A DNA stretch of 64,000 bases from a virus. Position numbers and translations under genes: made by a program. The notes under the pieces are model-generated. The model made no database searches. It was not told where the DNA came from and saw only the letters and a list, made by a program, of their open reading frames with translations. The stretch lies in the IMG/VR virus record IMGVR_UViG_3300047557_002984, positions 1 to 64,000 of that record; one strand, given 5' to 3'. Of the stretch, positions 28,367 to 30,856 are shown in pieces; position 1 is the first letter of the stretch; each line of letters opens with the position of its first letter.

Positions 28367-28577
28367 TCACCTCGAAGTTGAGGCGATGAAGGCGGGCCGT
28401 TGCGGAAGATGTTGCGGGTCGGATACAATGAAATCCGCTGCAAAGCTGCGCTCCATCGCAGTTTATGGCTCCCGATAGCGCCTTGTAATCACTATCGGGA
28501 GCCGCAGCGGTGATGATACACCTTTTGCCAAATTCCCGAAAGATGCAAAAGGCCAGCCGAAGCCAGCCTTTCCATTC

Positions 28578-28808
28578 TCACTTTTTCTTTTTCTTCGGTT
28601 TCGGCCCTGAACCGGGCCGCGCCCCGCCGCGCTGTCTCGGTGGCAGGTCGAGCGCAAGGCGCACGATGTTCTGGTTGGTCAGCGCCGCGAAGGCGACATC
28701 ATCCAGATCGGGCGCGTTTGCGCGTGCGCGCGGGCAGATGATGTCGCGCCATTCGGCGGCGGTGAAGCGGAGCTTCTCCACGATGATGGATTCTTTTAAT
28801 GTTCCCAT
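28578..28808 (-). CDS. Small putative DNA-binding regulator (Aca-like candidate)
   Basis: RHH-like N-terminus and RGGARPGSGPKPKKKKK tail; last gene of the DUF1874 operon. Confidence 0.6.
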   Translation of the reverse strand: MGTLKESIIVEKLRFTAAEWRDIICPRARANAPDLDDVAFAALTNQNIVRLALDLPPRQRGGARPGSGPKPKKKKK

Positions 28809-28812
28809 TTGC

Positions 28813-29334
28813 TTAAATCACAGCCACCCGCTCAATCCCCTTGGCGGTAAAGGTAAATTCCTCGCCGCCCGCAACCTGAACCTCTTTCCCTCCATCAGAC
28901 GCGAAGCCAAGCAAGGGCTCTTGGCTTAACCTAGTATCAAGCAGGACAGGGCAACCATCTGCAAGATTTCGCGGCATATCTTGCGGCTTCCACCATCGAA
29001 GCGAAAACAGGTTGAATGTGATGAGCGCGCCAAAGGTAAATCCAATGGCGTGGCACTCTTCTGCTGTTAGAATTTTGCCTTCGGGCGGTCGCCCGTTGAG
29101 CTTGAAGACAATCGCCACATCTCCAAGCCGCTGCTTATATTGAATGCGATTTACCGGAACATCTTGCCCTAGCAACTCAGAGAGAATCTGCGCTGTGGCA
29201 TCGTGGCCGATGGCCGATGTCACCGTGGCGCTTGGCTGATTTACCAGCCACTGCGCTTGTTGCAATGTCAGCGGGGCATAAACGGACGCCCCGTGCGTTG
29301 TCAGGATTGACGTGTTCAGTAATGCGATGTTCAT
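28813..29334 (-). CDS. acrIII-1: DUF1874/YddF family protein = AcrIII-1 ring nuclease homologue with a C-terminal extension
   Basis: LLN.SI, SAIGHDATAQILSELLG (catalytic GH), VNRIQY and FKL.GR.PEGKILT motifs. Confidence 0.85.
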   Translation of the reverse strand: MNIALLNTSILTTHGASVYAPLTLQQAQWLVNQPSATVTSAIGHDATAQILSELLGQDVPVNRIQYKQRLGDVAIVFKLNGRPPEGKILTAEECHAIGFTFGALITFNLFSLRWWKPQDMPRNLADGCPVLLDTRLSQEPLLGFASDGGKEVQVAGGEEFTFTAKGIERVAVI

Positions 29335-29372
29335 GATTCTCCTTTACTTCGCAGTATTACTTATGGGTTAAG

Positions 29373-29591
29373 TTACGCAGCAGGTGCTTTCTCTAAGCGC
29401 CAGACATTTCCGGGCACTTGCTGTCCGACCATGTCGGCGAGTAAAGCGGTGGCGTACACTACTGCTTCTTTTTGCCATTTACCACTAATGTTTAGAAATT
29501 CGCCTGTTTGAATGTTAACAACGCAAAAGCCCTGCTTTTGCGTTTCTGGCACGTTCGTTAATGCGCCCCGACTCAGTTCGTCGTGATACAT
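29373..29591 (-). CDS. Small hypothetical protein (anti-defence candidate)
   Basis: AAGGAG RBS; first gene of the AcrIII-1 operon. Confidence 0.7.
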   Translation of the reverse strand: MYHDELSRGALTNVPETQKQGFCVVNIQTGEFLNISGKWQKEAVVYATALLADMVGQQVPGNVWRLEKAPAA

Positions 29592-29662
29592 ACATTTCTC
29601 CTTGTTTTTTTACTGCGTCCTTGTTTCTCTCCGGCGACCCCATGCCGCCTTCGATGGTTTGC

Positions 29663-29690
29663 ATTATATTCAAAGTCGAACTTGAATCAA
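29663..29690 (-). promoter_or_regulatory. Promoter of the AcrIII-1 operon with operator
   Basis: TTGATT-16 bp-TATAAT; imperfect palindrome ATTCAAGTTCGACTTTGAAT at 29668-29687. Confidence 0.8.
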
Positions 29691-29708
29691 GGGAAAAATG
29701 CGATTGCG

Positions 29709-29742
29709 CAAAAAAAAAAGAGCCAGCCCGAAGACTGGCCCT
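29709..29742 (-). terminator. Intrinsic terminator after dnaN
   Basis: AGGGCCAGTC-TTCG-GGCTGGCTCT followed by a long U run. Confidence 0.85.
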
Positions 29743-29764
29743 TGCACACCACCGCGCACCATCA

Positions 29765-30856
29765 TCACACCCGCATCGGCATCACCACTTGCCGCTGGCT
29801 CGGTTGCGCCCCTGCATCCGGCGCGCACAATTCAACCCGTGATCTCGCATCTTTCATCCGCAGAACCACATCGCCAGGGAAGCAGCCGAGCGCATCCAGA
29901 AAATATGTGGAATTGACCGCCAGCGCAATGTCCGGCCCAACATAAGCAACCGGCATTTCATCTGCACACTCGCCCGCGTCACTGGCTGCACTGATCGCTA
30001 CGCGCCCATCGCTGAAATCCAGCTTGACCGTGCGGCTGCGTTCATCTGCCATCAGGCCCGCGCGGCGAATTGCAGCGGCAAGGTCTGCGGCGGCCATTGT
30101 GGCGTGGTGGTTGTTGTCTTTCGGCAAGACCAGTTCATAGTTCGGGAATTGCCCCGACAGCAACCGCGAGACAAGCAGGCGCTCTCCGGCGCGCACGAAT
30201 AGCTGATTCTCGCTCACGGCAAGCTCAACGTTGCCGCCAATTAGGCGCTGCATTTCGCTCAACGCCTTGCGCGGGATGAGTACATCTAGCTTCGCATCGC
30301 CCGCACCCGGCAGCGGTTCTTCCGTGAACGCCAACCGGTGCCCATCGGTGGCCACCAAGCGCAGCACGCCGCCTGCGATTTCCATCTTGGCCCCGTTGAG
30401 CGTATAGCGGCTTTCTTCCAGCGTAATGGCAAACGCCACGCGCTCAATTTGCCGCGCCAATTGCGAACCTGGGATTGGCAAAAACTCGCCCGCCGGTTTG
30501 GCCACATCGGGGAAGTTCTCAGCAGCGAGGCTCAGCAGCTTAAACCGACTGCGGCCATACGTAACTTGGATGTGTTCGCCCGGATCGCCGCTAAACGTGA
30601 TCTCTCCATCTGGCGCGTTCCTCACGACCTCACTGAGTTTCTTCGCGCTCAGGCAGCACGCGCCAGACACGTCCACGGCTGCCGCGCATAATGTTTGCAG
30701 CGTCACGTCCAGGTCGGTGCCGGTGATGCGTAACCATCCATCTTTCGCATCCAACAGCACGTTGGACAGAATTGGGATCGTGGGTTTGCGCTCCGTCACC
30801 CCTACCACAAGGGCAAGCTCTGCGAACAGAGCGGCTTTGCTAATGTTGAATTTCAA
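29765..30856 (-). CDS. dnaN: DNA polymerase III beta sliding clamp
   Basis: TIPILSNVLL, GTDLDV, EESRYTLNGA, VATDGHRLA, SRLL.GQFPNYE and VVMPMR motifs; TTG start after AAGGAGG. Confidence 0.95.
   Translation of the reverse strand: MKFNISKAALFAELALVVGVTERKPTIPILSNVLLDAKDGWLRITGTDLDVTLQTLCAAAVDVSGACCLSAKKLSEVVRNAPDGEITFSGDPGEHIQVTYGRSRFKLLSLAAENFPDVAKPAGEFLPIPGSQLARQIERVAFAITLEESRYTLNGAKMEIAGGVLRLVATDGHRLAFTEEPLPGAGDAKLDVLIPRKALSEMQRLIGGNVELAVSENQLFVRAGERLLVSRLLSGQFPNYELVLPKDNNHHATMAAADLAAAIRRAGLMADERSRTVKLDFSDGRVAISAASDAGECADEMPVAYVGPDIALAVNSTYFLDALGCFPGDVVLRMKDARSRVELCAPDAGAQPSQRQVVMPMRV

Follow-up and report, generated by a model that had tools for sequence, protein, structure and literature searches.

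What is the three-gene transcription unit that lies between the replication and the packaging genes of a tailed phage from freshwater and wastewater, and how might it be controlled? We examined this unit in the first 64 kb (hereafter the window) of the linear, 74,321-bp IMG/VR virus record IMGVR_UViG_3300047557_002984, which is estimated to be ~74% complete. One promoter and one closing hairpin flank three genes that encode proteins of 72, 173 and 76 amino acids (aa): gene 1, gene 2, which carries a DUF1874 ring-nuclease domain, and gene 3, a candidate ribbon-helix-helix (RHH) regulator that stands last, downstream of the DUF1874 gene. Our reading of the stretch as a counter-defence operon of the acr-aca type, in which anti-CRISPR (Acr) cargo is followed by an anti-CRISPR-associated (Aca) regulator, is held at slightly better than even odds. 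Such a design has a precedent in Aca14, an RHH-type Aca described in 2026 (PMC13551039), which represses its own csx20 ring-nuclease operon. The novelty lies in the regulator family, in a DUF1874 cargo protein with an extra domain, and in the exchange of cargo that can be seen between loci. The initial annotation had described a terminator-insulated strong promoter with a 20-bp imperfect palindrome as its spacer, followed by genes for a 72-aa protein, a DUF1874 protein and a 76-aa protein, and each of these elements is recovered, with open reading frames (ORFs) at 29591-29373, 29334-28813 and 28808-28578. In the order of transcription, the features are:

30898-29765, minus strand: dnaN-like beta-clamp gene, directly upstream of the terminator
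29708..29743, minus strand: intrinsic terminator of the upstream dnaN-like gene, with an 11-bp stem (29743-29718), a 4-nt loop and T10
29663..29690, minus strand: predicted sigma-70-type promoter TTGATT-16-TATAAT, 10/12 consensus matches
29668..29687, minus strand: candidate operator, 20-bp dyad ATTCAA-N7-TTTGAAT, 8/10 symmetric, spanning the -35/-10 spacer
29592..29656, minus strand: leader, ~65 nt, whose predicted 5' end is close to a small GC hairpin (29649-29633); an AAGGAG ribosome-binding site follows
29373..29591, minus strand: gene 1, 72 aa, isoelectric point (pI) 5.6, function unassigned
29334-28813, minus strand: gene 2, 173 aa, DUF1874 N-terminal domain plus C-terminal extension
29023..29334, minus strand: gene 2 N-terminal domain, residues 1-104, predicted DUF1874/AcrIII-1/Crn2 ring-nuclease fold
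28813..29022, minus strand: gene 2 C-terminal extension, residues ~105-173 plus stop codon, predicted five-stranded small beta-barrel of Tudor/SH3/Sm-like topology, pI 4.9
28578..28808, minus strand: gene 3, 76 aa, pI 10.4, predicted RHH-type homodimer with a C-terminal RGGARPGSGPKPKKKKK tail, candidate Aca-like autorepressor
28547..28572, minus strand: closing terminator-like hairpin with an 11-bp stem and a short U tract

The DUF1874 gene and its small companion

Gene 2 is almost certainly a member of the DUF1874 family. It matches PF08960 (STIV_B116-like, DUF1874) with 88.5 bits against a cut-off of 26 (E 3.6e-25; 89.7 bits on DNA), a result that upholds the initial identification of a DUF1874 protein with a SAIGH motif, and the match is confined to residues 3-100 of the 173. 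A 45-sequence gene 2 profile matches the PDB chains of AFV3-109, the Marinitoga Csx1-Crn2 fusion, STIV B116 and SIRV1 gp29. The AlphaFold model is confident throughout (predicted local distance difference test score, pLDDT, 91.3) and aligns in VIA-align with AFV3-109 (Z 15.6, root-mean-square deviation 2.6, 104 aligned residues) and with Csx1-Crn2 (Z 14.7, deviation 2.0, 108 aligned residues); the B116 fold gives a Z of 14.1, and Foldseek returns 2J6B at E 2.4e-8 and 6SCF, the gp29 structure bound to cyclic tetra-adenylate (cA4), at E 1.2e-6.

The residues that would bind and cut cA4 are preserved. Eight positions are invariant across 45 homologues (N7, T8, S9, H44, T47, R63, R82 and E85), among them the histidine of the SAIGH motif, H44. 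Matched by position offset, N7, S9, T47, R63 and R82 of gene 2 (alignment A4) correspond to the gp29 cA4 contacts N8, S11, T50, R66 and R85 (lid loop), and H44 corresponds to gp29 H47. In gp29, H47 is catalytic and T50, R66 and R85 contact cA4 (10.1101/778746). From this correspondence of residues, gene 2 very likely cleaves cA4.

AcrIII-1 is an established family, and gene 2 resembles its members (SIRV1 gp29, 6SCF; Bacillus subtilis ICEBs1 YddF; AFV3-109; STIV B116) in Pfam family, fold, the GH histidine and the cA4-contact residues; like the gp29-type proteins, AFV3-109 and B116, it is encoded by a virus. Two features set it apart. Gene 2 has 173 aa where the AcrIII-1 relatives have ~105-120, with a C-terminal small beta-barrel of ~70 aa added, and it has a promoter and terminator of its own, in a unit shared with a candidate repressor, whereas SIRV gp29 and gp37 lie in a middle/late operon. 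The Csx1-Crn2 fusion of Marinitoga (8Y6Z, 8Y7F, 8Y7G) contains the same ring-nuclease domain and likewise tolerates its fusion to other modules. In contrast to cellular Crn2, which resides in CRISPR loci and limits the host's own response, gene 2 is viral and is fused to a small beta-barrel rather than to a CARF-HEPN effector.

The extension occurs in only six other protein clusters (P0001-P0006, 52-92% identity), and it returned no match in Pfam or, by tblastn, in GenBank phages. Fusions are tolerated in the DUF1874 family at large, since other members bear different N- or C-terminal additions. We claim neither kinship of the extension with Tudor, SH3 or Sm domains nor a new fold, as the fold matches (Z 4-5.3) are weak and reflect a common arrangement. 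A scan of viral contigs returned no relatives of gene 2, and the DUF1874 neighbourhoods of Vibrio phage Rostov 7 and Fusobacterium phage phiFN37 hold no obvious regulator.

Gene 1, judged by sequence comparison, is a real gene under purifying selection: against its counterpart in a related locus, L012, the ratio of non-synonymous to synonymous divergence (dN/dS) is 0.08 at a dS of 0.96. Its homologues form two other clusters, P0129 and P0130, the third row retrieved (P0128) being the window's own protein. Pfam, PHROG and the PDB gave no match to gene 1 and NCBIfam a single sub-threshold row (E 0.023, 14.9 bits against a cut-off of 102), while a scan of viral contigs and tblastn against GenBank phages returned no relatives; the structural model is weak (pLDDT 63.5), and at a best fold Z of 4.5 no fold was assigned. 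Association is what suggests that gene 1 could be an anti-defence protein, an assignment we consider possible yet doubtful. Within gene 1, at 29520-29544, lies a perfect 11-bp stem with a 3-nt loop (-14.4 kcal/mol, z -3.4), of which 8 base pairs are retained in L012 despite heavy synonymous divergence.

A candidate regulator and the promoter it may control

Gene 3 had been read initially as a basic, RHH-like protein, and both its pI and its modelled contacts agree. The homodimer model scores 0.45, compared with 0.00 for the best of three controls. That mark is reached by 20 of 30 proteins solved as same-chain pairs and by 1 of 23 solved as single chains, counts that hold only roughly because our own alignment was used. 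Contacts agree between the dimer runs to at least 91%, with a partner pLDDT of at least 67. The two modelled chains pair antiparallel through residues 5-17 (10 with 13, 8 with 15) and helix 45-55 packs across the axis, a contact pattern that is the RHH arrangement; because many RHH dimers have been solved, the pass in the dimer test may itself reflect RHH likeness. We treat the model as evidence for a dimeric DNA binder that is likely, if a step less so than cA4 cleavage by gene 2.

Residues conserved across the family include the strand positions K12 and R14 along with R50, G61, G62 and R64. Small relatives share the strand KITNLxFT, a helix, a second helix TPQNVLRLALG and the element RxRGGARPxxG, and the basic tail of gene 3 reads RGGARPxxGPKPK. 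A profile search of 1.84 billion representatives retrieved only 16 clusters at E up to 0.001; hhalign links the two clades of the family with 99.2% probability over 68 columns, and the dN/dS of gene 3 between the window and the related locus L013 is 0.19. By sequence and model, gene 3 appears to define an undescribed small RHH-type family. It shares with the RHH repressors Arc, MetJ and CopG and with NikA-like proteins the predicted antiparallel N-terminal strands across the dimer, two helices, basic strand residues and, as its would-be target, a dyad in the promoter; it differs from them in a sequence link limited to one member (E 0.028, NikA-like) and in the added conserved Gly/Arg-rich tail.

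Searches of GenBank phages by tblastn gave no match to gene 3, and a scan of viral contigs gave only tail-motif matches in small-terminase-like ORFs. The tail motif GGARPGSGPKPK is the N-terminal motif of such ORFs in two viral contigs (L002:196-260 and L003:4022-4345), the second of which lies directly upstream of a 554-aa putative large terminase ORF; the motif is probably a generic DNA-binding arm.

The candidate target of gene 3 is the 20-bp dyad, which takes in the final 3 nt of the -35 element, the entire spacer and the initial nucleotide of the -10 element. This 20-mer is unique in the 74-kb record with up to one mismatch allowed, dyads of 8/10 quality occur at 6.7e-4 per position across the window, and the pattern ATTCAA-N7-TTTGAWT has one occurrence in the record. 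That gene 3 represses through this dyad we judge a little more probable than the opposite.

The boundaries of the unit are well marked. The terminator behind the dnaN-like gene folds at -22.2 kcal/mol (z -4.65) and shields the operon from incoming transcription. Genes 1 and 2 have AAGGAG ribosome-binding sites, and gene 3 starts 4 nt past the stop codon of gene 2. The closing hairpin (-18.9 kcal/mol, z -3.3) was not called by a simple terminator scan; in locus L015 the same hairpin carries a long T run. Between this operon terminator and a gene for a 288-aa membrane protein, at 28467-28503, lies a further hairpin with a perfect 14-bp stem (-27.4 kcal/mol, z -5.3), which is kept in L012, L014 and L015.

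The transcription start that bounds the leader is an inferred position. Compared with shuffled sequences, the leader hairpin shows no excess stability (z -0.9), Rfam gave only sub-threshold chance rows over 28400-29800, and exact leader motifs were found in IMG/VR nowhere besides the contig of locus L016 itself. In contigs from three sequencing runs, a ~31-nt segment of the leader (29628-29658) has unrelated flanking DNA: on one side stand other promoters, one of them with a TACACG-N11-CGTGTA repeat abutting TATATT, and on the other side other ribosome-binding sites and start codons. Because its flanks in these contigs are unrelated, the segment seems common to many cassettes in these communities.

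RNA evidence came from two metatranscriptome runs of one study and was too weak to use, with patchy contigs whose strand and ends are unreadable. Genes 1-3 are partly covered by these contigs, the final 200 nt of dnaN not at all.

Cargo exchange in related loci and the setting of the phage

Loci L013 and L014, from a related phage, retain dnaN, the terminator, the promoter (with a -10 of TATAGT), the dyad with a single change at a non-symmetric position, the leader through the ribosome-binding site, and a gene 3 that is 86% identical. Between the ribosome-binding site and gene 3, one unrelated 151-aa ORF replaces genes 1 and 2; this alternative cargo had no match by tblastn in GenBank phages. 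L014 also retains the downstream membrane-protein gene.

A more distant case is L016, an IMG/VR locus that was retrieved by protein homology alone. Its order is a terminator, a promoter TTGATT-17-TATATT, ORFs of 70, 67 and 94 aa without assigned function, a 76-aa member of the gene 3 family, a bidirectional terminator and a convergent integrase gene. The promoter contains an 8/10 dyad, ATTCAA-N7-TTTGATT, in the same register as in the window (offset 3 from the start of the -35) and with the same outer half-sites. The similarity between the two spacers was reached by 44 of 20,000 random 17-mers, the remaining 19,956 being less alike. In the 22 loci compared, ATTCAA-N7-TTTGAWT is confined to gene-3-family loci with the pattern in their promoter, at one copy per locus.

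L012 holds genes 1-3 with an extra 80-aa ORF upstream, and gene 1 overlaps the start of gene 2. At L012:140-441, a near-consensus promoter (TTGACA-17-TATAGT, 11/12) and the shared hairpin leader drive this 80-aa ORF, which belongs to no family, and the hairpin past it is oriented as an opposite-strand terminator. Between window positions 28813-29591 and L012:590-1570, dS falls from 0.96 in gene 1 through 0.12 in the N-terminal half of gene 2 to 0 in the C-terminal half of gene 2 and in gene 3, both of which are identical in the two loci; because dS differs in this way along the operon, L012 appears to be a mosaic, the product of recombination within the operon or of a chimeric assembly. A leader with a CATCG hairpin follows all four promoters (those of the window, L013 and L016 and the upstream promoter of L012), and the leaders of L012 and L016 have a 27-nt stretch in common with one position different. 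L015 (170-1275) has an insertion immediately past the gene 3 terminator, a cassette of two genes (163 and 226 aa) that belong to no family, with a promoter TTGCAT-N18-TAGTAT.

The gene 3 family thus recurs as the last gene behind swapped cargo (L013/L014, L016, L012), and no other cargo gene is a known acr. As far as sequence comparison can carry it, the exchange of cargo and the common dyad register in L016 fit an Aca-like autorepressor. The initial proposal that gene 3 represents a new Aca family holds in that the family is undescribed and its comparative pattern fits an autorepressor; it has to be narrowed in that an RHH-type Aca beside a ring nuclease is known (Aca14) and in that the L012 promoter is devoid of the dyad.

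The record is a tailed phage, and nearly all of the phage genes identified by PHROG matches lie on the minus strand. Upstream of the operon lie a primase/helicase, a replication initiator and the dnaN-like clamp; downstream lie a DNA methyltransferase and the large terminase, portal, major head and tail genes. Near-identical DNA is present in freshwater and wastewater metagenomes from 11 studies, and blastn of the operon gave no match. ESM Atlas scores of 0.78-0.87 came with no named family and were uninformative.

The closest short DUF1874 genes are found in metagenome-assembled genomes (MAGs) of Acidobacteriota (Blastocatellaceae and Pyrinomonadaceae). In a Pyrinomonadaceae MAG (L008:5001-6993), the genes in order are a cellular DUF1874 gene, a 148-aa ORF without significant family match and a gene for a 402-aa Cas_NE0113 (CARF) protein, and a weak Cas10-like ORF lies ~9 kb away on the same contig. 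That these bacteria pair Crn2 with CARF proteins is evident from this locus; that they host this phage is not. Relatives of the phage capsid protein were found in 2 of 301 Acidobacteriota genomes, one at 38% identity and the other a fragment in an unpublished genome (G054) on which no claim rests.

Weighing the operon as a counter-defence unit

If the acr-aca reading is right, the near-consensus sigma-70 promoter, with hairpin terminators on both sides of the unit, would drive all three genes. Gene 2, like SIRV1 gp29 and YddF, would bind cA4 at its dimer interface and cleave it by way of His44, and removal of cA4 would take away the second messenger that activates the CARF effectors of type III CRISPR; the C-terminal beta-barrel is assigned no role. 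As gene 3 accumulates, its RHH-type dimer with the basic tail would most likely bind ATTCAA-N7-TTTGAAT and repress its own promoter. Gene 1 would be a conserved small cargo protein. The gene structure, the family and fold of gene 2, the predicted gene 3 dimer, the swapping of cargo and the recurring dyad come from the analysis itself; that gene 2 cleaves cA4, that gene 3 binds DNA and represses, and when the operon is expressed are what we infer.

The nearest precedent is Pasteurella multocida, in which the RHH protein Aca14 autorepresses the csx20 ring-nuclease operon via an inverted repeat over the -10 (PMC13551039). The operon described here likewise combines a ring-nuclease gene, a small RHH-type regulator and an inverted repeat in the promoter, with autorepression as the model. 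Its ring nuclease, however, is a DUF1874 protein and not Csx20, and its dyad spans the -35/-10 spacer where the Aca14 repeat lies mainly over the -10. The regulators are set apart by description: Aca14 has a long helical extension, whereas gene 3 has a conserved RGGARPxxG basic tail and no Pfam RHH match. Unlike csx20-aca14, the operon gives no sign of control over a neighbouring operon, because only one operator copy was found. With the canonical acr-aca loci (Aca1-Aca13) it shares a strong promoter, variable small cargo, a conserved regulator as last gene and an inverted repeat in the promoter; in contrast to those loci, the regulator is of the RHH rather than the helix-turn-helix type, and the cargo targets the second messenger of type III systems rather than a Cas protein.

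Several observations count against this reading. A recognisable anti-defence gene is found in only one, the window/L012 set, of the four cargo sets that accompany the gene 3 family. In L012, genes 1-3 stand behind a TTGACA-17-TATAGT promoter that has no dyad, so gene 3 is not always paired with it. The strand residues presumed to face the DNA are V-K-R in the window and I-N-E in L016 while the half-sites are alike, and it could be the conserved tail, or some other factor, that recognises the dyad. Gene 3 had no match in Pfam, PHROG, NCBIfam (sub-threshold rows only) or the PDB, and together with 15 aligned relatives it yielded no Pfam RHH match save that of one member to a NikA-like family (E 0.028). 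One RNA-library contig extends to 29703, upstream of the predicted start. The DUF1874 relatives and the Acidobacteriota capsid search named no host, and the initial inference that the host uses cA4 signalling gains no support here. Finally, the SIRV2 gp37 precedent means that a DUF1874 ring nuclease need not be an Acr in its native setting.

The strongest competing explanation, which we regard as possible though clearly less probable than a counter-defence operon, is a general accessory-gene (moron) cassette, a portable frame of promoter, leader, RHH gene and terminator that accepts any cargo, with gene 3 as a general cassette or phage regulator. It is in keeping with the cargo of L013/L014 and L016 and the extra L012 ORF, which have neither an anti-defence annotation nor any family, and with the absence of the dyad from L012. 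The same site also accepts other cassettes, as the L015 insert with its different promoter after the gene 3 terminator illustrates, and in the run contigs the leader segment turns up downstream of other promoters and upstream of other genes. Yet acr loci normally consist of unannotated small genes, the sole identifiable cargo belongs to an anti-CRISPR family, and published Aca families also govern mixed anti-defence cargo (PMC13551039); this explanation departs from the counter-defence operon in what the cargo does, not in mechanism.

Less probable still, and in our view unlikely, is that in this phage gene 2 serves some end other than anti-CRISPR activity. It would then either degrade cA4, or a signal related to it, with a different purpose or work mainly through a protein interaction, which its beta-barrel might mediate, possibly with gene 1. 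SIRV2 gp37, a native AcrIII-1 homologue, shows no Acr action during infection, being expressed too late, in the middle/late phase (bioRxiv 10.1101/2023.01.10.523387), and it has a second function, mainly the binding of a host methyltransferase; among archaeal anti-defence genes, the AcrIII-1 gene has the lowest association with early promoters, 0.13. The extra domain of gene 2 is confidently folded and, as with gene 1, limited to a small clade. Against this stand the conservation of every cA4-contact and catalytic position, the restriction of the gp37 partner to Crenarchaeota, and the possession, unlike gp37, of an own strong promoter and a candidate autorepressor, the layout expected for an early burst of expression.

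Least probable, and in our view very unlikely, is that the dyad is a host-factor site or conserved promoter context and that gene 3 acts elsewhere, be it on the leader (in DNA or RNA form), on some other target in the phage or its host, or non-specifically on DNA through its basic tail. In favour, the dyad is missing from L012 although gene 3 is present, the clades differ in their strand residues at identical half-sites, the hairpin leader is conserved with all four promoters and Aca1 and Aca2 are reported to bind leader RNA; against it, the pattern is found only at gene-3-family promoters in the 22 loci, it keeps its register in a locus retrieved by protein homology alone, and the leader type likewise does not follow the gene 3 clade.

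Beyond the counter-defence operon itself lies a broader proposal, which we advance as speculative and somewhat less probable than the general accessory cassette. The gene 3 family may mark a portable counter-defence cassette composed of a terminator, a dyad promoter, a hairpin leader, variable cargo, an RHH regulator and a terminator, with cargo consisting of new anti-defence proteins and with the beta-barrel adding a second inhibitory or targeting activity to gene 2, possibly together with gene 1. If this were true, the new anti-defence cargo would comprise gene 1, the 151-aa ORF of L013/L014, the 80-aa ORF of L012 and the three ORFs of L016. Cargo swapping provides a short list of candidate anti-defence genes, the gene 3 family could act as guilt-by-association bait alongside Aca14, and the extra domain on a ring nuclease is a further, separate lead. 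The native anti-CRISPR role of viral DUF1874 ring nucleases is disputed, the objection being that the SIRV copy is expressed too late; because the copy described here has its own strong promoter and a candidate autorepressor, whereas SIRV2 gp37 is late, this phage would be useful for testing that native role outside archaea.

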